A DNA stretch of 43,577 nt, taken from positions 1 to 43,577 of the forward strand of contig CBDBIJ010000128.1 of the NCBI GenBank assembly GCA_965205655.1, given 5' to 3'. Positions 5,912-34,988 of this stretch are shown here, one piece after another. Each line of letters opens with the position of its first letter. The first letter of the stretch is position 1. Below the pieces are notes generated by a model. The model ran no database searches and was not told where the DNA came from. It worked only from the letters and a program-made list of their open reading frames with translations. Source of the stretch: Candidatus Latescibacterota bacterium (GTDB lineage Bacteria > Latescibacterota > UBA2968 > UBA8231). The position numbers were made by a program, and so were the translations under genes.

Positions 5912-7100
5912 TCTCTGCAACCCCATCCGAGCGGGCCGGGAAACGCAGCTCGAGCTTCGTGGCGCCATCCGCGGCAGTCTCGATATCGAGAGCGCCGCCC
6001 ACCATACTTGCCCGCTCGCTCATGCTCTCGAAAGGCGCCGCCTCGACCGGGGATCCGCCGAACCCGCGTCCGCCATCGCGGATTTCGGCGACGACGAGGC
6101 GGGCATCAGATGTCATCGCCAGGGCGATCTGCACCTTGCCACCTTCTCCACCGACCATGTTCAGGGCCTCCTGCACGATGCGGTAGACCGTCGTCTTGAC
6201 CTCGAAGGGGAGCTCCACCACGGCATCTGACATGTCGAGAGCGACGGGGATGCCGGTTCGTGTTTCGAACTCCTCACCGAGGCTGCGCAGGGCCGGGGCA
6301 AGCCCGAGATCGTCGAGCAGGCCGGGTCGAAGATTGTGGGATATGCGACGAATTTCGCCTATCGAGCTATCGAGAAGCTGGCGAGTATGCTCGAGGCTCC
6401 GGAGGGCGTCCGAATCCGGATTCCCGAATTCTCGCGCGGCCGCGTCGAGTCCGAAGCCGACGGCGCAGAGAAGCTGGTTGACCCCGTCGTGGAGCTCTCG
6501 CGCCACCCGTCGGCGCTCCTCCTCCTGGTGGCGCACCGTCTTCGAAGAGAAGTCCCGCACAAGCTCCTCGGCGTGCCGGCGACGGGATACCTCCTCCTGC
6601 AGACGATCGTTGTGCCGCTCGAGATTGCGCAGTACCCGCCTGCTCTCCGACACCTCTCTGGCGATGCCTTCGATGGCGGCGAGCGTGCCGGAGCGGTCGT
6701 AGATGGGAAGGCAGCGATGTTCGATCCAGAGGGTGTGGCCGTCCTTGTGACGACAGCGCATGACAAGGGGTCGCCCGAACTCCCCGTCGCGAACGTAGGC
6801 TTCCAGGACAGGGCGGTCCTGGGGGTGGGCCATCTCGAGCGCTAGGTCGGGGTCCGCGTAGAATTCACCGGGAGTGTGCCCAGTGATCTGGAAGACGACC
6901 GGGCTGACGTACTCGACCCCGCGGGACGGGGTGAATCTGTACTTGTAGACGATGTCGCGCGCGTGCTCGACCAGAAGGCGAAAACGCTCTTCGCTCTTCC
7001 TCAGCTCCTCCTCGCACTCGCGGCGTGCACCGATCTCACTTTCCAGCACGCCGATCCGGCGCTGCAGAGCCTCGCTCCCGTTGTTCGATTCTGCCCCCAC
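5901..7100 (-). CDS. PAS-domain HisKA_3 (NarX/UhpB-type) sensor histidine kinase, cytoplasmic
   Basis: PAS/PAC domain; H-box QEEERRRVARELHDGVNQ; LRP..LDDLGL; divergent HATPase domain. Confidence 0.88.
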   Translation of the reverse strand: MGAESNNGSEALQRRIGVLESEIGARRECEEELRKSEERFRLLVEHARDIVYKYRFTPSRGVEYVSPVVFQITGHTPGEFYADPDLALEMAHPQDRPVLEAYVRDGEFGRPLVMRCRHKDGHTLWIEHRCLPIYDRSGTLAAIEGIAREVSESRRVLRNLERHNDRLQEEVSRRRHAEELVRDFSSKTVRHQEEERRRVARELHDGVNQLLCAVGFGLDAAAREFGNPDSDALRSLEHTRQLLDSSIGEIRRISHNLRPGLLDDLGLAPALRSLGEEFETRTGIPVALDMSDAVVELPFEVKTTVYRIVQEALNMVGGEGGKVQIALAMTSDARLVVAEIRDGGRGFGGSPVEAAPFESMSERASMVGGALDIETAADGATKLELRFPARSDGVAENES

Positions 7101-11162: not shown

Positions 11163-12389
11163 CTACAGCGAGGCGATGCGTTCCATCGCCTCCTCGACCA
11201 CTTCGCGCTGCTGGAAGGCGGAGAGACGCAGATACCCTTCACCGGCGGCTCCGAACCCCGCGCCAGGCGTACCCACGACGTGGGTTTTGTTCAGCAGTGT
11301 GTCGAAGAAGCTCCAGCTGTCCACGCCCTCCGGCGTCTCCAGCCACAGGTACGGCGCGTTGTCCCCACCGTACACGGTGTAGCCGCAGGCGCCGAGCCTG
11401 TCGCGCATCAGGCCGGCGTTGCTGAGGTAGAACTCGATGAGCTCGCGCACCGCTGCCCGTCCCTCATCGGTGTAGGCTGCGGCGGCGGCGCGTTGCACCG
11501 GATAGGAGACTCCGTTGAACTTCGTCGACACGCGGCGATACCACAGCGGATGGATCTCCCGAGCCTCGCCGGAAGCGGTGCGGCCCATCAGCTGTCGGGG
11601 CACGACGGTGAAAGCGCAGCGCACGCCGGTAAATCCGGCGCTCTTCGAGAGTGAGCGCATCTCGATGGCCACCTCGCGCGCGCCGTCGATTTCGTAAATC
11701 GAGTGAGGAATGGCGGCGTCGGTGATGTAGCCCTCGTAGGCGGCATCGAAAAAGATGATGGCGCCTTCGCTCCTGGCGTAGCCAACCCATTCCTCGAGGG
11801 CCTCGCGACTCATCACCGCGCCCGTAGGGTTGTTGGGCGAGCACATGTAGATGAGATCGACGTGGCGGTCCGGCAACGGGGGCAGGAATCCCCGCTCGAC
11901 AATACAGGGAAGATAGACGATGCCATCGTATCGGCCCTGAGCATCCGCCTCGCCGGTACGTCCTGCCATGACGTTGCTGTCGCAGTAAACGGGGTAAACC
12001 GGATCCGTCAGCGCGATGACGTTTTCGAGGCCGAAAATCTCCTGCATGTTGGCAGAGTCGCACTTGGATCCGTCCGAGATGAAGATTTCGTCGATCTCAC
12101 AATCGACGCCCCGCGACTTGAAATCGTGCTCGACGATGGCCGCGCGGAGATCGTCCTGGCCCTGCTCGGGCGGGTAGCCCTGAAACGAGGCGTCGTGCGC
12201 CAGCTCCTCGGCCGCCGCCTTCATGGCGTCCACGATAACCCGGGGAATTCCCCTCACCACGTCACCGATTCCCATGCGGATGACGGCTGCGTCGGGGTTG
12301 GCCTGCTGAAAGCTGTTGACCCTTCGAGCGATTTCGGGAAACAGATATCCAGCCGTGAGCTTCAGATAGTTTTCGTTGATCAGCGCCAT
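11163..12389 (-). CDS. dapL: LL-diaminopimelate aminotransferase
   Basis: [75 protein letters not shown]. Confidence 0.96.
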
Positions 12390-12571
12390 CTACCCTCTTT
12401 CTCTTCTGCCATGGGAGCAGAATCTATGGAGCGGCTGCCACAACCTCAAGAAATGGTGGCACTTCGAACCCGCAGCGGGATACCGGATGTTTGCGCCGTT
12501 CCTTACCTTAGCGTGGCCAGACCTGGAAGCAGAGTTGAATTCACCTAACAGCGAATTGTGAGTTGTCATCG

Positions 12572-14287
12572 ATGAGCCCGGAGAACGACGGCAGCGAAAA
12601 CGGCCCAGAGGCGGACTCCCGCGACTTCATCAGGAGCATCGTCGCTGAGGATGTCGCCGGCGGTGTGCACGGCGGACGAGTCATGACTCGCTTCCCTCCC
12701 GAGCCGAACGGGTATATGCACATCGGCCACGCCAAGGCGACGTGCCTGAACTTCGGCGTCGCCGAGGAATTCGGCGGCGTCTGCAATCTCCGCTTCGAGG
12801 ACACCAATCCCGAGAAGGAGAGCATGGAGTTCGTCGAGGCGTTCGAAAAGGACGTGCGCTGGCTCGGCTTCGACTGGGGAGACCGCGAGTACTTCGCCTC
12901 CGACTACTACGAGAAATTGTTCGACTTCGCCGTGAAGCTCATAGAGAAAGGCCTGGCGTATGTCGACAGCCTGAGTGCCGATGAGATCAGGGAGCACAGA
13001 GGCACACTGACGGGGCCCGGCAAAGCCAGTCCCTTCCGGGACAGGACGGTGGCGGAGAGCCTCGACCTGTTTCAGCGTATGAGAGCCGGCCAGTTCGCCG
13101 ACGGCGAGCACGTGCTGCGGGCCAGGATCGATATGGCCTCGCCGAACATGAACATGCGCGATCCGACCTTCTACCGCATCCGGCATCAGAATCACTACCG
13201 CAGCGGCGATCAGTGGTGTATCTACCCGATGTACGACTTCACCGAATGTCTCTGCGACGCCATCGAGGGTGTCACGCATTCGCTGTGCGACATCGCCTAT
13301 GAGAATCACCGACCACTCTACGATTGGATCCTTCGGGAAGTGGAAGTCGAGAATCCTCCGCACCAGTACGAGTTCGCCCGACTGAATCTCAGCTACACCG
13401 TGTTGAGCAAGCGCCACCTGCTCCGGCTCGTCACCGAGGGGCATGTCCGGGGCTGGGACGATCCGCGTATGCCGACGGTATCCGGTATGCGACGGCGCGG
13501 CTATACCCCGGAGGCGATTCGCGCCTTCGTCCATGAGGTCGGTATCGCCAAACGCGAGAATCTCGTCGATATCGCCCTGCTTGAGCATCACGTGCGAGCC
13601 GATCTCAACAAGAGTTCCCGGCGTGTCATGGGAGTGCTGGATCCGGTGAAGCTGGTGATCGACAACTATCCCGAGGGACAGGTCGAAGAGCTCGAGGCGA
13701 TCAACAATCCCGAGGACGATGGCATGGGGACAAGAAAGGTACCGTTCTCACGCGAATTGTATGTAGAGCGGGACGACTTCCGCGAGGACCCTCCGAAGAA
13801 GTACCACCGTCTGGCGCCGGGCGCTGAAGTTCGACTGCGATATGGCTACTACGTGACCTGCGTCGACTTCGACAAGGACCCCGAATCGGGCGAGGTCACT
13901 CTCATTCGGTGCACCTACGATCCGGAGACCAGGGGAGGCTCATCTCCCGACGGACGCAGAGTCAGAGGCACCATACATTGGGTGTCGGCCGCAGATGCCC
14001 TCGACGCAGATGTGCGCCTCTACGATCGCCTGTTCGTCGTCGAGGATCCGAACCCACGGGATGCGGATTTCATCGAGCTGCTCAATCCGAATTCCGTTCA
14101 GGTGCTTTCTGGATGCAAGGTGGAACCGAGTCTGTCGGCGGCGACGCCCGGGAGTCGCTTCCAGTTCGAGCGACAGGGGTACTTCTGCGTCGACGACGAT
14201 TCCGCAGCGGGGCACCTCGTCTTCAATCGCACTGTCGCCCTGCGCGACTCCTGGGCCAAGATCGAAAAGGCAGCCAGATCCGCCTAG
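12572..14287 (+). CDS. glnS: Glutamine--tRNA ligase family protein (atypical amino-acid pocket)
   Basis: [53 protein letters not shown]; see findings for the motif deviations. Confidence 0.92.
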
Positions 14288-24976: not shown

Positions 24977-25438
24977 GACTGCTCCGCGTGGCACTCCATG
25001 CAACGCTGCAAAAAATCGCCGACCTGGTCGCGGTCACAGCAGTGCGGGCGGGACTGGCGTCCGAGTGCCGCCGGGGCAGCACTAGTCAGAATCCGGAATA
25101 TATCGAAGGGCCGCACCTCATCCAATCGACCCGGAGTGGGAATCCCCCCGTTGTGGCACAGATCGTTCGTACGGATTTCGAGCGCGACCGCTGATGAAAG
25201 AACGAAGCTTAGCGCTGCTGGCGCATCGACAGTCCGAAGATGGCCAGGAGTGCGATCAGCGGGACTACGAAGAGCAAAGACCCCATGAGTGTCACCTGAT
25301 CGTGGCGGAGTGGTAAACGATTCTCATGCGCGGGAAAGGAGCTACCCCAGGCATGCGCCCGCACGGCTCTATCATAAACCGGGGACGGTTCACGCCATGC
25401 AATCAAGCAATGGCTGTGCCACCTCAGATGAGACTATG

Positions 25439-25505: not shown

Positions 25506-26333
25506 TCAGTTTCTGGAGATTTCGGCGAGGATTTCTCCACAGTCGGTCTTCAGCTTGTCGAGCGCCCGGTTGCGGAGTTGGCGGACGCGCTCCCTGGTCA
25601 CGCCCATCGTCTGGCCGATCTCCTCGAGGGTCATGGGTTTGACCTCGCCGAGACCGAAGTAGCACCGGAGAATCTGGTACTCCCGATCGTCGAGCACACC
25701 CAGGCAGTCGATGACGGTCGCTTTGAGACGCATCTCCTCGAAAAGATCGTCGACCCTCTCCTCAGGGGAAGCGAAGACTGAATGAAGCGTCGTCTCCTCG
25801 TCGGTGTAGGCGGGAGCATCAAAGGAAACATCCTGCTGCCCCACCTCGACGGCGTTGCGGGTGCGCTCCTTGCTGATGTCTACGCTGGCGGCGATCTCCT
25901 CATATGTAGGGTCGCGGCCGAGCCGTTGTGCCAGGCTGCCGGCCTCTTTTTCGAGCTTCTGCAAGTCGTTGATCTGGCTCATGGGAGGGCGCGCGATCTT
26001 GCCCTGTTCCGCCAGCGCTTTGAGAATCGCCTGTTTGATCCACCACACGGCGTAGGTGATGAATTTGAATCCCCTGGTCTCGTCGAAACGTTTGACGGCT
26101 TCCAGCAGTCCCACGTTTCCCTCTGAAATGAGTTCCACCAGGGTCAGGCCGTAGTCCTTGTAATGCCGGGCAACACTCACGACAAATCTCAGATTCGCGG
26201 TGACGATTTCCTCCCGCGCCCGTTCGTCCCCCGCCTTCGCCAGCGTAAACAGCCGTACCTCTTCCTCGCGCTTGAGGGGCTCGGCGTCCCGGATATCCCG
26301 CCAGTAGAGTTCAGTCAGGTTGTCTGCCGTCAT
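25506..26333 (-). CDS. Sigma-70 family RNA polymerase sigma factor (RpoD/SigA-like, no region 1.1)
   Basis: ANLRFVVSVA, LISEGNVGL, RFDETRGFKFITYAVWWIKQAI, TLEEIG..MGVTRERVRQ. Confidence 0.93.
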   Translation of the reverse strand: MTADNLTELYWRDIRDAEPLKREEEVRLFTLAKAGDERAREEIVTANLRFVVSVARHYKDYGLTLVELISEGNVGLLEAVKRFDETRGFKFITYAVWWIKQAILKALAEQGKIARPPMSQINDLQKLEKEAGSLAQRLGRDPTYEEIAASVDISKERTRNAVEVGQQDVSFDAPAYTDEETTLHSVFASPEERVDDLFEEMRLKATVIDCLGVLDDREYQILRCYFGLGEVKPMTLEEIGQTMGVTRERVRQLRNRALDKLKTDCGEILAEISRN

Positions 26334-28172: not shown

Positions 28173-29078
28173 TCACCATCTTCTGACCCGCCACTTTTTT
28201 TCTTTTTCTTCTTCTTGCTTCCTTCTCGGCACGTCGACGGGCAGGTCGTCGAGATCCTCATCGAGATCATCGGGTGCCTCTTCTTCTGCAAACAGGGCAC
28301 TCGCTTCTTCCAGCTCCTGCGCCATCTCCTTCTCCGCCCGCTCCTCCAGCTCTGCCGTTGACATGGGTGGCCAATCGAGGAAGAAATCCTCTACCGCAAA
28401 GGTGAGGAAGCTCCCCTTGAGATAGCGCTCGAAAGTGCTGGCGACGACGTGGGAGCAAAGCGGATCCAGGTCGGGCTCGGTCTCGTCGATGACCAGTTCC
28501 ACCAGCTCGTGGAGGAGCAGCGTCTCGATAAGGCCAACTTGCTCGACACCGCCGGACGTAGCGGCGTCCTCATCCCAGTCCTGGAGGACCTTTTTGACGG
28601 CCACGACCAGATGAATCTCCGACTCGCGCTCGAAGGCGACGACCTTCGCCTCCTTGATGGCCTGCAGGTCGGTGCTGCGCACCTCGTTGAAGGGGTGACC
28701 GATAAGTCGGAATGGATCTCCGCTGGCGGGATTGAGACGGTCCGAGAACACGCGGCCGGCCTGGGCGGGGCGTGTGAGGATGTAGTCCAGCACGCTGTCC
28801 TGCGGTGGTGACCAGATGCGGGCGAGGCGGCCAGAGCGGATACTGGCGACCATGCCGGCGTCCTCGTCTTCTCCGGGCTCCTCGAAAAGGGCGGCTATGA
28901 GGGACTTCTTCTCATCAGGGGCGGCGCCACCGCGAAACTTGAAGCTCCCCATCTGTTGCAACAGCTGCACGCGACTTCGGGTCTCGGTGGGCGCCAAGTC
29001 GAGTAGCGTTTCGTAGAAGGTCTGATACCCGTCTTCCTCCGTCCACGTGCGGAACTCGTCCGGACTCCGTTTGAGGGA
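28173..29078 (-). pseudogene. Acidic hypothetical protein, 5'-truncated at the IS30 boundary
   Basis: The frame stays open and protein-like upstream of the called TTG 28997 (SLKRSPDEFRTWTEEDGYQTFYETLLD) up to the IS end at ~29079; contains LLHELVE...SHVVA. Confidence 0.65.
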
Positions 29079-30308
29079 CGCGAGTTCAACCAGTCAACGC
29101 AACACCTTCATTGAAGCGTTCTGCGGGTGAAACGAACCCCAACGTCTTCCGCGGGCGCTGGTTCAGTTGAAGAGCGACTCTGTTCAGGTCGGCTTGGGAG
29201 AATGGCGACAGATCGGTCTTCCTCGGGAAGTACTGTCGAAGAAGGCGATTCGTGTTCTCATTTGTGCCTCGTTGCCAGGGACTCTGAGGATCACAGAAAT
29301 ACACCTCGACGTCAGTTGCGATCGAGAACTCCTTGTGCCGAGCTAGCTCCATTCCTCGATCCCAGGTAAGGGACAACCGCACCGCGGAGGGGAGTCGTTT
29401 CACCTGGCTGATCAGCGCTCTGACAACGGTCTCGGTGTCTTTGCCGTTGAGCTTCACGAGCATCGTGAACCGAGACTGCCGCTCCACCAACGTGGCGATG
29501 TGCGTGTTGTTCGACCCCGAGATCAAGTCTCCCTCCCAGTGGCCGGGAACGGCGCGGTCCTCGATCTCGGCAGGCCGCTCGCTGATGGATACGGCGTCGA
29601 CGATCCGGCCTCTCGGCTGATCGCGTGTGCTTGCCTTCTTGGATCGCCGCATCATCCTTCGCGTCCGCAGATGCGCAATGAGGTCCTTGTTGAGTGCCCC
29701 GCGTGCCTGGATGAAGAGAGTTCGATAGATCGTTTCGTGGGATATCTGCATATTTCCTAAAAGCGCATACTCCCGCTTCAGCCATCCCGATATCTGCTCA
29801 GGTGACCACTTCAGGCGTAGCTTGTCCGCCACGACTCGCCGCAAACGAAGATTGGATGCGAGTCGGCAGCATTTCGGCCGGCTGGCGCGCGTCCAGGCTG
29901 CTTGGTCGGCAACGTTTGCTCGGTACCTTTGCCGCCCGCCATTGCGGGCAATCTCTCGGCTAACCGTCGAGGGTGCACGCTCAACAGCGGCCGCAATTAT
30001 TCGTATCGATTTTCCCGCAGCGATACCTCGAGAGATCTCTTCACGCTCTTCCCAGCCAAGAGCCCATCGAGAGCGTCGACGCGGCATTGGTACGATGCCC
30101 CCATTGGCGGTGATGACACCATGAATCGACGCCGGATGCTTCCCGAGCGCCCGACCAATATCGCTATGCGACTGGCCGCTCTTCCATCGACGCCATACCT
30201 CCAACTTCTGTGACGCGGACAATCCTGGTCGTCCCATTTGAGCCATGTGCAACATCTCCTATGATTAGATTAGTGGGGAGAATGTTGCATTGACCGATTG
30301 AATATACC
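29079..30308 (-). mobile_element. IS30-family insertion sequence
   Basis: IR cores ttcaaccagtcaacgcaaca (29085-29104) and tgttgcattgaccgattgaa (30283-30302), 17/20 match; exact ends estimated about 6 nt further out; no target duplication seen. Confidence 0.9.
29086..30246 (-). CDS. IS30-family transposase
   Basis: WSPEQIS, ISHETIY, GHWEGDL, LTWDRGME, PWQRGTNENTNRLLRQY, LNQRPRKTLG; start ATG 30246 fits the AGGAG spacing. Confidence 0.95.
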   Translation of the reverse strand: MAQMGRPGLSASQKLEVWRRWKSGQSHSDIGRALGKHPASIHGVITANGGIVPMPRRRSRWALGWEEREEISRGIAAGKSIRIIAAAVERAPSTVSREIARNGGRQRYRANVADQAAWTRASRPKCCRLASNLRLRRVVADKLRLKWSPEQISGWLKREYALLGNMQISHETIYRTLFIQARGALNKDLIAHLRTRRMMRRSKKASTRDQPRGRIVDAVSISERPAEIEDRAVPGHWEGDLISGSNNTHIATLVERQSRFTMLVKLNGKDTETVVRALISQVKRLPSAVRLSLTWDRGMELARHKEFSIATDVEVYFCDPQSPWQRGTNENTNRLLRQYFPRKTDLSPFSQADLNRVALQLNQRPRKTLGFVSPAERFNEGVALTG

Positions 30309-31442
30309 ACCGCTTTCCCCACTATCGCCACTGCCATCCAGGCCATGAAGGAAGGCGCTTTCGACTACCTGCCGAAACCTTTCTCTCCCGACCAGCTGAT
30401 CCTCACAGTCGATAGAGCGCTGGAACAGAAACGACTGGCCGAGGAAAATATTCTGTTGCGACGCGCCCTCAAGGTGCGGCCCGGGTTTGACGGCATCGTC
30501 GCCCGATCCCAGGCGATGGAGCGGGTGATGGACCTGGTTGAACGCCTGGCGGACAGCGACAGCAGCGTTCTCATTCAGGGTGAGACCGGCACGGGAAAGG
30601 AGTTGATTGCCCGAAGCCTTCACAGCAACAGCGCCCGGCACGACCGCCCGTTCCTGCCGATCGATTGCGGCGCCCTGCCGGACCAGCTCCTCGAAAGCGA
30701 GCTATTCGGCCACGAGCGCGGGGCCTTCACAGGCGCCTACACTCGTAAACCCGGCCTGCTCGAAGCCGCCCAGGGAGGCACGGTTTTTCTGGACAAGATC
30801 GCGACTCTCAACGTCGACCTTCAGGTCAAGCTTCTCCGCGTCCTGCAGGAGCGCGATCTGCGGCGCGTGGGCGGGACGGAATCGATCGCCGTTGATTTCA
30901 GGCTGATTTCTGCGACAAACGAAAGTCTCGAAGAGGCAATCGAGGCGGGGCGTTTCAGACAGGACCTCTACTACCGCGTCAATGTGGTGTCTGTATCGCT
31001 GCCACCTCTGCGGGACCGGAGAGAGGACATTCCACTGCTCGCCAATCACTTCATCCGGGTGCTCAACGAGACTGGATCCAGGGAGCGGGACGGCATCGCG
31101 CCCGAGGCGCTTGGGCTGCTGGAGCGTTACGAGTGGCCCGGGAACGTGCGCGAGCTCCAAAACGCCATCGAGGGCGCCTTCTCCCTCACTGATTCGGGGT
31201 GGATCACCCCCGCCGGTTTGCCCGGGCGCATAACCGATCGCGAAGGTGGCTCCGGGACAGAAGCACTCTCAACCTATACCGACGCCAAGCGGAGTTTCGA
31301 GCGCGAATTTGTGCTTGAGTTTCTCAGACAGTACGACGGCAATGTCTCGCGTGCCGCCGAGGAGGCCGGGCTCCACCGCTCGTCCTTTCAGCGCCTGATG
31401 AGACGACACGGGATCCACTCAGAGGAATACCGACCGAACTGA
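30309..31442 (+). pseudogene. NtrC/AtoC-family sigma-54 activator with the receiver domain 5'-truncated by IS30 and a Walker B E->K change
   Basis: Begins mid-REC right at the IS end (TAFPTIATAIQAMKEGAFDYLPKPF); GETGTGKE, ESELFGHERGAFTGA, FLDKI, WPGNVREL, Fis-type HTH. Confidence 0.85.
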
Positions 31443-31450
31443 GCAAACAA

Positions 31451-31563
31451 CTGCTTCCCGATCGCGGCACTGCTGCTTTTTAGCACAATCTGATTTATTC
31501 CAATAGAAATCAATTAGTTATCATCGATTTTCGACTCGTTTAGTGCCGCATTTTTGCGGCACT
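31451..31563 (+). promoter_or_regulatory. Putative enhancer (UAS) for a sigma-54 activator
   Basis: Perfect palindrome AGTGCCGCA-TTTT-TGCGGCACT (31542-31563); degenerate copies at 31451-31470 and 31470-31489. Confidence 0.7.
31508..31520 (+). promoter_or_regulatory. IHF-consensus site
   Basis: AATCAATTAGTTA matches WATCAANNNNTTR exactly. Confidence 0.55.
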
Positions 31564-31608
31564 TTGTTCATTACATCCGAAATCGTCCAAACACACTATC
31601 TGTAATAA

Positions 31609-31621
31609 AATCAACAGATTA
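31609..31621 (+). promoter_or_regulatory. IHF-consensus site between the enhancer and the sigma-54 promoter
   Basis: AATCAACAGATTA matches WATCAANNNNTTR exactly, with an A/T tract upstream. Confidence 0.65.
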
Positions 31622-31649
31622 CTGATACCGACACCGGCGGATCAGATGC

Positions 31650-31664
31650 TGGCACGAGGATTGC
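31650..31664 (+). promoter_or_regulatory. Sigma-54 (-24/-12) promoter
   Basis: TGGCAC-GAGGA-TTGC matches TGGCAC-N5-TTGC. Confidence 0.85.
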
Positions 31665-31675
31665 GAGCTATTACG

Positions 31676-32010
31676 GAGATCTCCTGTGGGCGAGTTGAGT
31701 GGGGGCTGGTGGCCAGATTCCGAACCACCTGGCCGACGAGGGGGCGGGAATATTTCCCAGGTACTGGTTACGCACCGAACCAGGCCGGCCCTCTTCGTCG
31801 ACGGGTGTTCGCAGCAGGTTGCTGCCTTCAACGGGTTGGGGAGCGAATCGAAACCTTGCCGGACTACCCATTCGGCGGCTGTTGTGCGATTCGAGAGCGA
31901 CCGACGCTCTGGGAGTATGTCTCCAAGATCAACGGGCGCTCGTCTCCATCGCCAGCGCTCATCCCGCCCGCGGTCCCCTCAGGAAATGATCCTGAGGGGA
32001 TTCTTTTTTT
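31676..32010 (+). ncRNA. Candidate sigma-54-dependent structured non-coding RNA (~335 nt), family not recognised
   Basis: Lies between the sigma-54 promoter and an intrinsic terminator; 5'/3' basal stem plus three multibranch domains found by eye; no protein-like ORF. Confidence 0.6.
31974..32010 (+). terminator. Intrinsic terminator (plus-strand orientation)
   Basis: Perfect 10-bp stem tcccctcagg/cctgagggga, 7-nt loop, then TTCTTTTTTT; no U-tail in the minus direction. Confidence 0.85.
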
Positions 32011-32764
32011 ACCGGGTAAAGACCGTGCCCCTTACGTAGGATCCATCGTCGGAGGCGAGAAAGGCCAGGACCCGGGCGACTCCTATTGGATCGCCGAGAT
32101 CTTTCAGCGCCACCTCCATAGCGCGCTGCGGATCCTCTCCGGACAGCTCCGCTCTTTCTGCGATATTGGCGAGTTTCAGAGGGGTGGCGATGCTGCTGGG
32201 GCAGATGACGTGCACCCTCATCCCTTTTGGTTCGTATTCACTCTGGAATTTCATCCGCATGCCGTGGATGCCGGCCTTGCTGGCGGCGTAGGCGAAGGAG
32301 GAGCTGGCGCCCGTAACTCCGGCGCCTGACGAGATGAGCAGGAGAACGGATTCCTTCGCCGCCACCATCAACGGCACGCCGTATTTCGTTGCCAGAAAGG
32401 TGCCCTTCAAGTTTGTGTCGATGGTCGCGTCCCAGTCCTCCTCGTCGAACTCCTCGATCCCCCGGTGCGCTCCCTTCAACACGCCGGCTCCACACATGAG
32501 GATGTCCAGCTTTCCGTAGCGCCGGGAAACCTCCTCGAAGGCGGCAGCCACGCTGCTTTCCGTCCGCATGTCCGCGTGAAGAAAGAGCGCTGCTCCTTTC
32601 CCCGCCCCTGCAATCCGGTCGCACACCGCTGTTCCTTCGGCCGCGTTGTAATCGAGCACGACCGCCGCGGCGCCCTCGGCGGCGAACAGCTCTGCCGTGG
32701 CGGCGCCGATGCCGGTGGCCCCGCCGGTGATCACCGCTGTCTTGCCCTCGAGTTTCATCGTCAC
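32009..32764 (-). CDS. Short-chain dehydrogenase/reductase
   Basis: TGGATGIG, ISS, YAASK, ICPSSIAT, FLASDD; start could also be ATG two codons in. Confidence 0.93.
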   Translation of the reverse strand: MTMKLEGKTAVITGGATGIGAATAELFAAEGAAAVVLDYNAAEGTAVCDRIAGAGKGAALFLHADMRTESSVAAAFEEVSRRYGKLDILMCGAGVLKGAHRGIEEFDEEDWDATIDTNLKGTFLATKYGVPLMVAAKESVLLLISSGAGVTGASSSFAYAASKAGIHGMRMKFQSEYEPKGMRVHVICPSSIATPLKLANIAERAELSGEDPQRAMEVALKDLGDPIGVARVLAFLASDDGSYVRGTVFTR

Positions 32765-32783: not shown

Positions 32784-33998
32784 TCACCAGCTCAACCATT
32801 GAAAGGGTTCCTGGATGTAATCGCGCACCGTCGACAGGAAGTTGCTGGCGGCGATCTCGTCTAGTTGATCCACATCGAAAGTGAGGCTGAGGCTCACGAA
32901 TTGTCGCGGCTCCATTCGATTTTGAATGACGCCGGGCCTCGTCACCGCCGCTCCCGCTCCCAGCGCGGCGAGCCGTGATTGGCCCAGGGCGGGCCGAAAG
33001 GAGTCGGCGCCATACGGACCCATGTCGACGACGGCGATCGAGCAGTCGCAGTCCTCTTCCAACGGCTCCCCATGCCCGGCTCGCTCTTCCAGCAAGCTGG
33101 ATTCTCGTGCTATCTCGCGCAGAGACTTGGAGGCGACGTCGCGGATCACGCCATACCCGACACCTGCTCCGGTTTCAACTCCTCTCGAGACGTGGACGGC
33201 AGCGCGCCCGCACTGGCGATCGGCCCGTACCTCGTGGTGCTGGGCGAGGGCGACCGCTGTGAGCTTGATGAGCAAATCGGTGCGGCTCGGCGAGGCGTCA
33301 TTCAACGGCGATCCCGCCAGCTTCTCCTGCAGTCTGATGAACTCGGTGGCATCCGCCTCTACCGTTAGTGAGGCCGTTTGTGCGCCCGTCCGCGCGGCTG
33401 TCACAGAAGACGCCGGCGGCGCTTCCGTGACCCGCTCCGCGACTCGCCCCGCGACCCGCCTCACGTCCTGCTCAATGATGCGACCCGTCCGCCCGCTGCC
33501 GCTGATCACTCGCCAGTCGACGCCGAGCTCAAGCGCGATGCGGCGCGCTCGGGGGCTGATCGCCTGCTCTCTCGCGCCTCCAGCCCCCATTCGAACGAGT
33601 GGTCGAGTTGCCGGAGCGGGGAGTGCTGGAGCTGGGAACGCTGAAGCGGTCGCGACGACCGGGTCGGACGGCGCAGTTGTCGCGTTCGTGGGCTGCCGGT
33701 GTGCCGGCGACGGGATCGCCGTTGCGGAGCTCGCTCTTTCGGGGATCTCCTCGCCCTCCTGTACGACCCAGGCGAGTAGCGTTCCCACCGGGACCGTCGA
33801 ACCCGGTTGCGGCGACCCGGAAGGGATGCGGAGGATGCCGTCGTCGAAAATCTCGACTTCGTTGACCGCCTTGTCGCTCTCCACCAGCATGACGATGTCG
33901 CCGGAGGCGACCTCCTCGCCGTCTTCTTTCACCCACTCGACGAGGGTTCCCTGCTCCATCGTCCAGCCGAGACGCGGCATGACAATTTCCACCGCCAT
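32784..33998 (-). CDS. E2-like protein: lipoyl domain + E1/E3-binding domain + degenerate acyltransferase domain
   Basis: MAVEIVMPRLGWTMEQG...VESDKA (lipoyl Lys); ISPRARRIA...GSGRTGRIIEQDV; C-terminal SLTFDVDQLD instead of DHR..DG. Start overlaps the E1b stop (TAATG). Confidence 0.8.
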   Translation of the reverse strand: MAVEIVMPRLGWTMEQGTLVEWVKEDGEEVASGDIVMLVESDKAVNEVEIFDDGILRIPSGSPQPGSTVPVGTLLAWVVQEGEEIPERASSATAIPSPAHRQPTNATTAPSDPVVATASAFPAPALPAPATRPLVRMGAGGAREQAISPRARRIALELGVDWRVISGSGRTGRIIEQDVRRVAGRVAERVTEAPPASSVTAARTGAQTASLTVEADATEFIRLQEKLAGSPLNDASPSRTDLLIKLTAVALAQHHEVRADRQCGRAAVHVSRGVETGAGVGYGVIRDVASKSLREIARESSLLEERAGHGEPLEEDCDCSIAVVDMGPYGADSFRPALGQSRLAALGAGAAVTRPGVIQNRMEPRQFVSLSLTFDVDQLDEIAASNFLSTVRDYIQEPFQWLSW

Positions 33999-34988
33999 TA
34001 TTCGGCCAAGAGATCGCGGATGGCGGCCTCGATATCTGCAGCCTGAGGGATCGCCGCCGCCTCGAGGGTGGCGCTGTACGGAGTCGGGGTGTGAGCTCCG
34101 TTCAGTCGCCTGACCGGGGGCGGCATCGAGATCGTCGAACGCGCCATCGAGCACCTGCGCGGCGATCTCCGCGCCCACTCCGCACGGGGCGAACGTCTCA
34201 TCCACGATGAGCAGTCTCCCCGTTTTGGCTACAGATTCGAGAATCGTGTCGATGTCCAGGGGGGCGATGGTACGCGGATCAATCACCTCGATCGATACTC
34301 CTTCATGTGCGAGTGCCTCGCACACGTCGAGGCTTTTCTGCACCATAGACGTCAGGGCCACGACAGTCGCATCCTTGCCGACCATGCGACCGGAGGCCTG
34401 CCCGAAGGGAACTGAATACTCTTCTTCCGGCACCTCACCCCGGGCGCTCAGCAGCGACTTGTGTTCCAGAAACAGCACCGGATCGTCGGCGGATCGGATC
34501 GACGTCTTCAGCAATCCCTTGGCGTCGTACGGGGTCGCCGGCAGAGCGACGCGAAAACCGGGGAGATGTGCGAATATCGGATAGTAGTTGCCGGAGTGGT
34601 GCGTCGCCGATGCGCCGCCGAGCCCGATGCAACCGCGCAGCACGATAGGCATTTTGAGACGGCCGCTGCTCATGTACTGCATCTTGGCGATCTGATTGAT
34701 GATCTCCCCCATCGCGTCCAGGCCGAAATCGAGAAACATGTAGTCCACCACCGGTCGGGTTCCGGTCATGGCGGCGCCGGCGCACATGCCGGTAAAGCCC
34801 CTTTCGTAGATGCCGGTGTCGCGCAGCCGCATGTCTCCGTAGATCGCGTGCAGGCCCGTCGTCGTGTTGAAGTTGCCGCCTCTCGGGCCGACACCCTCTC
34901 CGACCACGAAGACGGTGGGATCGGCAGCCATCTCTTCGGCGAGACCCTCCAGCGCGGCTTCCGTGTAGGTCAGCTCACGCACGGGCAC
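33998..34988 (-). CDS. TPP-dependent dehydrogenase E1 beta subunit (AcoB/PdhB-like), frameshifted near 34116-34121
   Basis: VVGEGV, RDTGIYE, GTRPVVD, ATHHS, DPVLFLEHK, IDPRTIAPLD; the native tail PVRRLNGAHTPTPYSATLE...LLAE* is in another frame. Confidence 0.85.

Follow-up and report, generated by a model that had tools for sequence, protein, structure and literature searches.

The window, by which we mean the whole 43,577-nt stretch of DNA analysed, carries on its forward strand a truncated gene for an NtrC-family sigma-54 activator, followed by enhancer-like sites, a sigma-54 promoter box, a predicted non-coding RNA of about 335 nt and an intrinsic terminator that faces a convergent short-chain dehydrogenase gene (Table 1). 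Upstream of the activator gene lie an insertion sequence and a conserved gene that lacks its first codons. Beyond the dehydrogenase gene, a single minus-strand ORF (32784–34988) encodes a dehydrogenase E1 beta part together with lipoyl, E3-binding and acyltransferase domains, and is possibly either a frameshift or a true fusion.

Table 1. Features of the locus in window coordinates, with the evidence for each
Feature	Position	Strand	Evidence or detail
Conserved gene, first ~74 codons missing	28173–29078	-	L073 orthologue aligns (tblastn) from residue 75 at 29075
Insertion sequence	29079–30308	-	transposase ORF 29086–30255; Pfam HTH_38 and rve
NtrC-family sigma-54 activator, truncated	30309–31442	+	Pfam: AAA+ domain, GAFTGA and HTH present
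Distal enhancer-like site	31452–31469		4 mismatches to TGCCGCA-N4-TGCGGCA
IHF consensus site 1	31508–31520	+	exact match
Proximal enhancer-like palindrome	31542–31563		9-bp arms, 4-T spacer
IHF consensus site 2	31609–31621	+	exact match
Sigma-54 -24/-12 box TGGCAC-N5-TTGC	31650–31664	+	2/2000 shuffles
Predicted ~335-nt non-coding RNA	31676–32010	+	fold, Rfam blank, pair probabilities
Conserved core: long stem (31734–45/31788–800) with three-way junction on top	31722–31808	+	covariance model, pair counts
Core helices P2 and P3	31746–50/31754–58; 31760–69/31778–86	+	
Invariant CGCACCGA	31771–31778	+	P3 loop
Second conserved hairpin, 7-nt C-rich loop (31864–31870)	31856–31878	+	motif, pair probabilities
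Intrinsic terminator	31972–32010	+	stem 31972–32002 with T tail
Short-chain dehydrogenase gene, convergent	32009–32764	-	Pfam

The original prediction had placed a consensus -24/-12 box, two exact IHF consensus sites and a perfect palindrome with degenerate copies behind the stop codon of the activator gene. Box and IHF sites were confirmed, two or more exact IHF sites occurring in 1 of 3000 shuffles. The palindrome lies where it had been placed, but it is not perfect, its arms being interrupted by the 4-T spacer; the distal enhancer-like site is a degenerate copy of it. HU/IHF-family genes are present in the genomes but score below the IHF-alpha cut-off, and so do not demonstrate IHF proper. 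Strict sigma-54 boxes number 9 in the 4.0-Mb genome, and a transcription start at 31676 is predicted from the standard spacing to such a box. A second strict box lies in the window at 25421 (-), just past the end of a sigma-70-family gene (25506–26333). A regulon scan of genome G000 gave four promoter-like boxes with an enhancer-like site; the one at C30 lies inside an opposite-strand ORF.

The predicted RNA interval folds at -166 kcal/mol (z -4.70), and none of 100 shuffles was equally stable, which agrees with the structured RNA that had been proposed; after removal of the terminator the fold still reaches z -3.5 (60 shuffles). As had been anticipated, no Rfam 15 family reached its gathering score in the window (even with E relaxed to 10, the best match had 15 bits), and no Rfam 15 match covered the RNA in seven related loci. 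Within the structure that had been drawn by eye, the long basal stem (31684–31712/31949–31973) has a mean pair probability of 0.69, and the first domain stands firm, with 1.0 for its closing stem and 0.91 and 0.99 for its two hairpins. The other two domains were not recovered: the closing stems proposed for the second (31803–11/31860–69) and the third (31879–84/31930–35) both have a pair probability of 0.0, and the AGAGCG hairpin of the third has 0.01. According to the pair probabilities, 31856–63 pairs with 31871–78 instead, and the predicted hairpin so formed takes the place of the second domain. The terminator had been claimed from 31974; its stem was found to begin two positions earlier and to be followed by the expected T tail.

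Relatives of the RNA and their activator genes

When 101 related genomes were searched with the region by blastn, the window alone was returned. Homologues were reached solely via the activator protein, by reading the DNA behind its orthologues. Searching 76 family genomes with the activator yielded nine loci at E below 1e-92, and searching 168 phylum genomes yielded 13 matches (window included) at E of 1e-169 or better, the next one being at 5e-136. A pattern derived from the core matched 13 places in genome contigs, four of them true, and 13 places in metagenome contigs, ten of them true; the chance matches (nine and three, respectively) came without the promoter–activator layout and scored at most 22 bits with the covariance model. 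Nine of the 14 true matches repeated known sequences and were removed. The family comprises ten distinct full-length members (the window, L011, L012, L015, L016, L051, L060, L061, L062 and L069), which amount to nine distinct sequences in the 86-nt core.

Carriers account for 6 of the 168 phylum genomes, with one copy each, in addition to the metagenome contigs. The same six are 6 of the 76 family genomes and belong to four genera of one family. Pattern and covariance model agree on these six, and a reversed-pattern control gave 0. Weak model matches in G002, G042 and G099 (23–30 bits) were not counted as members: the motifs are absent from G042, and in G002 and G099 the loop letters are retained while the P2 helix and the stems are lost. 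Viral contigs contained no activator relative and no pattern match. No description of this RNA was found in the main texts of the openly accessible literature searched, nor in that of bioRxiv 10.64898/2026.10.21.760802, whose supplements could list the motif.

The promoter region is shared by all ten members. Counted from the promoter box, the distal site stands at -193 to -208, and the proximal one either at -106 to -108 or, one helical turn further, at -116 to -119. The two sites are spaced 87–92 bp apart, have 0–4 mismatches to the consensus given in Table 1, and are followed by the box 63–106 nt 5′ of the core. Such fixed phasing would fit the need of an enhancer to be looped onto the sigma-54 polymerase. 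The IHF consensus is exact in three of the ten members and within one mismatch in nine. The gene for sigma-54 itself, rpoN, was present in all five carriers searched, cut by the contig end in G000.

An orthologous NtrC-family activator gene precedes the RNA in nine of the ten members; in L069 the end of an integrase gene, presumably of the IS3 type, stands before the enhancer instead (by eye). The sequence features of an activator-adjacent sigma-54 sRNA module of the Pxr/NrsZ type are found across the family, namely the box with two sites (10/10), the activator upstream (9/10) and a conserved non-coding structure between promoter and terminator. In intact relatives the kinase gene comes first and the activator gene second, followed by the enhancer sites, the promoter box and the RNA. 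The kinases examined contain HisKA and HATPase domains (Pfam), with a PAS domain in L073; in L075 and L076, Pfam found no sensor domain in the called ORFs, and no NCBIfam cut-off was reached. In a tree of 19 activators, which left out L051, L060, L061 and L069 (partial or without the gene), the six carriers included form one clade (99/99).

Among the 13 best activator orthologues, five have the RNA and eight do not. Four of the eight (G024, G012, G055 and G152) have enhancer-like sites and a box, but another sequence follows; the remaining four have no sigma-54 box in the stretch read. Because orthologues keep sites and box before other sequences, the promoter looks older than this RNA.

Structured sequences of other kinds occur in comparable places. 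In L114, a different RNA of about 135 nt (6700–6835, +; z -5.3) with a strong terminator lies behind an orthologous activator, where enhancer-like sites and sigma-54 box come in another order; the covariance model of the present family gave no match to it. In L017 (1130–1262, -) and a matching stretch of L018, the same enhancer and promoter precede another hairpin-rich sequence (z -4.1), which begins GGATCGTAA, as do five members of the RNA family. A profile search with the long forms did not reach the L017, L018 or L114 RNAs.

Conserved core and covariation

The window core matches a covariance model common to nine other sequences (71–99 bits) and is 52–61% identical to the other members. P2 is an invariant GGGA/UCCC helix whose 5-nt loop varies at three positions, and P3 is tipped by the invariant contiguous 8-mer CGCACCGA. 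The invariant letters gather round the junction and occupy both strands of P2.

In the model-fitted alignment, 92.6% of 284 cells are paired and 13 of the 32 core pairs are changed on both sides; 0 of 500 shuffles came as high, and slid-partner controls gave 34–48%. A second test kept the column partition and relabelled the derived letters: pairing survives in 29 of 47 derived pair types (19.0 expected, p 0.001) and in 16 of 21 double changes (8.3 expected, p 0.0004). These values are to be read with the facts that the core structure was derived from five of the same ten sequences, that the alignment leans toward that structure, and that the ten members represent about three lineages. A held-out check at full length is weak, being convincing in only one of five comparisons: changed pairs were kept in 14/18 (8.9 expected), 19/42 (20.8 expected), 4/8 (2.4 expected), 3/6 (1.8 expected) and 1/1 cases. 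G-U cells outnumber A-C cells by 28 to 4, which favours the plus strand. Covariation had been proposed as a check on the regions behind orthologous activators, and it is seen in the core of the first domain.

All ten members fold at z -5.1 to -8.4 relative to their own shuffles. Three of them are about 117 nt long and consist of the core only; the other seven span 268–334 nt and all end in a 3′ terminal hairpin, with weak T tails in some. The second hairpin of Table 1 recurs as the same stem-loop, its loop unpaired, in six of the seven long forms, and its motif has 8 matches across the whole genome. A hairpin loop with ACAGGC occurs in the 3′ domain of six of the seven long forms (L012, L015, L016, L051, L061 and L069) and is absent from the window RNA. 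The conserved unit is the first domain only, a long stem with a three-way junction; a three-domain structure as the essence of the RNA is not supported, domain 1 alone being common to all ten members.

Lesions in the window's strain

The insertion sequence, which we take to be of the IS30 family from its HTH_38 and rve architecture, replaces about 1.9 kb that holds the kinase gene and most of the receiver domain in another strain: in run X2, a single contig joins the two flanks and carries 1898 different letters in the interval from 29078 to 30308. Absent from the window's assembly, which is 84% complete, are the kinase orthologue, residues 1–83 of the receiver and the start of the divergent gene. 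The gene next to the element (28173–29078) has orthologues divergent from the kinase in several carriers. With its L073 counterpart (11470–12660), it represents a conserved ~390-residue protein with an acidic and then lysine-rich tail, to which neither Pfam nor NCBIfam gave a match. The insertion sequence is part of a burst of one IS30-type element in genome G000, with >20 copies at ~99% identity, most of which have a 17-bp duplication of their own end.

A second lesion affects the activator itself, in which the Walker B glutamate reads lysine (base 30795). Walker B DE occurs in 35 of 42 activator relatives, the other seven not being parsed, and the glutamate codon is present in runs X2, X3 and X4, from two studies. 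In these three runs, the 30 letters before 30308 read in-frame as a receiver resembling that of L073 (by eye). Run X1 matches the window and shows both junctions of the insertion sequence; it does not count as independent evidence because it may be the window's source. Loss of the Walker B glutamate blocks ATP hydrolysis. With the kinase gone and the ATPase motif changed, the activator switch is likely dead in the window's strain. Activators trimmed down to the AAA+ domain can act constitutively, as in DctD250 (PMC3844500), and the Walker B change may therefore have silenced a runaway truncated activator.

Two claims of the original prediction are thereby divided. An NtrC-family activator gene is indeed adjacent to the RNA, but it is not intact in this genome. 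Likewise, the sigma-54/structured-RNA module is supported as a property of the family, given a conserved and covarying unit tied to one activator clade that matches no Rfam family and shows no coding signal; it is not supported as a working module here, with the kinase gone, the receiver cut and Walker B changed.

Known counterparts and proposed mode of action of the RNA

The layout is of a known type, exemplified by Pxr, NrsZ and CrcZ, but the present RNA is set apart from each known family by its sequence, a motif or a partner. Pxr of Myxococcus is a 108-nt triple stem-loop sRNA directly downstream of nla19 (PMC5568312). It resembles the present RNA in lying downstream of a sigma-54-dependent response regulator, in having its own sigma-54 promoter and several stem-loops, and in its narrow distribution; the RNA described here differs as a junction-topped rod of 117–334 nt from another phylum, without an Rfam match. 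NrsZ of Pseudomonas lies between ntrC and a convergent gene and has an RpoN box (PMC4253122), so that the activator gene on the 5′ side, the convergent gene on the 3′ side, the box and a conserved loop motif are all shared. However, NrsZ repeats one hairpin, whereas the core here is single and branched, and the activator here scores 390 bits against an NtrC cut-off of 559. ACAGGC also occurs within the NrsZ motif ACAGGCAG, a six-letter likeness that may be chance. CrcZ, whose RpoN box is noted in PMC4253122, has six A-rich stretches, binds Hfq and acts as a protein decoy (PMC4063720). As a long RNA under two-component control (CbrAB) it is similar; in contrast, and as had been predicted, the members here lack its A-rich repeats, with no AAnAAnAA and an A content of 15–20%, and Hfq was found in none of five carriers searched.

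GlmY has a sigma-54 promoter, palindromic activator sites (TGTC-N10-GACA) and two IHF sites, with glrK/glrR downstream (PMC3045617). It is a decoy RNA with promoter and palindromic sites of the kind described here, and its two IHF sites flank the proximal activator site as they do in the window. It differs in its site consensus and in having glrK/glrR behind it, and membership of GlmY/GlmZ fails because there is no Rfam match and RapZ was found in 0 of 5 carriers. The precedents that had been cited for an activator-adjacent RNA hold in so far as such layouts are known, but GlmY lies upstream of glrK/glrR (PMC3045617). CsrB/RsmZ-type RNAs differ as well: unpaired GGA number 0 in all ten members, and CsrA is present in two of six carriers. 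Ro60, the TROVE-protein partner of Y RNAs, occurs in 0 of 76 family genomes. The hallmarks of 6S, SRP RNA and tmRNA were predicted to be lacking, and they are: none is matched by Rfam, SRP RNA lies elsewhere in 5/5 carriers, one tmRNA was called elsewhere in G000 (ARAGORN), and the large central bubble of the ~180-nt 6S rod is not seen here. The RNA family thus appears new, and the kind of module is already known.

What the sequences show is the covarying core and its place after kinase, activator, enhancer sites and box; activation, transcription, action in trans and protein binding are inferred. A cytoplasmic histidine kinase would phosphorylate the NtrC-family activator encoded next to it; bound to the two conserved palindromes that follow its own gene, the activator would open the conserved sigma-54 promoter, and the predicted free-standing non-coding RNA would bind and titrate a protein through its three-way-junction head. 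To this explanation as a whole we assign a probability of roughly 40%; that the locus yields a real non-coding RNA transcribed from the sigma-54 promoter is very probable. Protein binding is a tentative choice for the mode of action, narrowly preferred over loop pairing on account of the invariant letters, which lie round the junction and occupy a helix whose own loop varies. The short unpaired stretches (longest run 5–10 nt) and the blank searches for Hfq and ProQ point the same way. A search for the partner found none among Hfq (0/6 genomes searched, five of them carriers), RapZ (as above), ProQ (0/76 family genomes) and Ro60 (control 2/14), and CsrA occurs in 29/76 family genomes but in few carriers; absence of a partner is not proven by this, since the carriers are 76–93% complete. 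In genus g13, the three genomes that carry the activator orthologue belong to the 4 of 31 with CsrA, which may reflect lifestyle or kinship rather than a link. Rather unlikely is the bolder version in which the RNA would be a signal-induced decoy whose compact junction head titrates a new type of RNA-binding regulator, the lineage being one in which searches for Hfq, ProQ and RapZ were blank, and in which an older enhancer and promoter would have taken up unrelated structured RNAs in sister clades (L114, L017), recording the birth and replacement of sRNAs.

The closest competitor, itself doubtful, keeps the same promoter logic and lets the RNA act in trans by Hfq-independent pairing of its loops with mRNAs, as proposed for NrsZ, through the CGCACCGA loop and through C-rich loops directed at G-rich ribosome-binding sites. 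An invariant 8-mer in an apical loop is what a pairing seed classically looks like, and the P3 loop presents just such a contiguous 8-mer. C-rich loops are exposed in six of the seven long forms, and for NrsZ, which depends on a conserved loop motif, action without any protein partner is proposed (PMC4253122). However, only three bases of the P3 loop are fully unpaired in the ensemble, the complement of CGCACCGA is not over-represented in G000 (309 seen vs 346 expected), and pairing does not require the junction helices to be invariant. A target search in G000 gave 25 rows near possible starts, estimated to be no more than chance. The one candidate followed, a site over the ispD start, was dropped, being absent at the start in 3/3 orthologues in which the start was seen, with one more not readable.

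That the RNA is a cis-acting leader, an attenuator or riboswitch of a following acetamidase/formamidase gene, is improbable. Such a gene (PF03069) does follow the terminator on the same strand in five of the ten members, some terminators have weak T tails, and a compact junction would suit an aptamer, but behind the other five, the window among them, only a convergent gene is found; none of these five has lost an invariant letter, an argument for action in trans. The window RNA has no co-oriented gene to lead, since the convergent dehydrogenase gene follows it. ANTAR protein was found in 0 of 5 carriers, in a search whose control was also blank everywhere.

Much the same standing belongs to the idea that the interval is no functional RNA at all but an element acting at the DNA level, the remnant of a repeat or a small ORF. 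In one frame, two of the variable letters are synonymous (by eye), GC-rich DNA folds easily, and the activator is broken in one carrier strain. Against this, the core covaries with a G-U bias, and the element is single copy in each genome. Three plus-strand ORFs cross the interval, none with a Pfam match or a conserved start or frame, in keeping with the earlier view that no ORF there is credible. The ten members share neither a reading frame nor a start, each plus frame is stopped in some of them, and three of the ten have a one-base deletion within the core, so that the coding signal that could have overturned the original prediction was not seen in the homologues.

Least credible is a divergent 6S-like RNA polymerase decoy under sigma-54 control: RF00013 finds no 6S in five carriers (G000, G013, G019, G033 and G050), none was found next to zapA there, in two carriers zapA is followed directly by the next gene (by eye), and the short forms are rods, yet the longest unpaired run in the members is 5–10 nt with no central bubble, the short forms measure 117 nt, the RNA occurs in so few family genomes, 6S does not figure among the Rfam matches at E up to 10 or 5, and the RF00013 blank says little because that model also misses 9/14 control genomes.

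Titration of a protein under a kinase/activator/sigma-54 switch remains our preferred, if tentative, reading. The result is an RNA family from an uncultured phylum, likely Latescibacterota, that is without an Rfam match and tied to a named switch; its narrow range limits its reach. Kinase, activator, predicted binding site and promoter could be rebuilt in E. coli. Since Hfq, RapZ, ProQ and, for the most part, CsrA were not found in the carriers, a partner or target of this RNA would show riboregulation without the usual partners.
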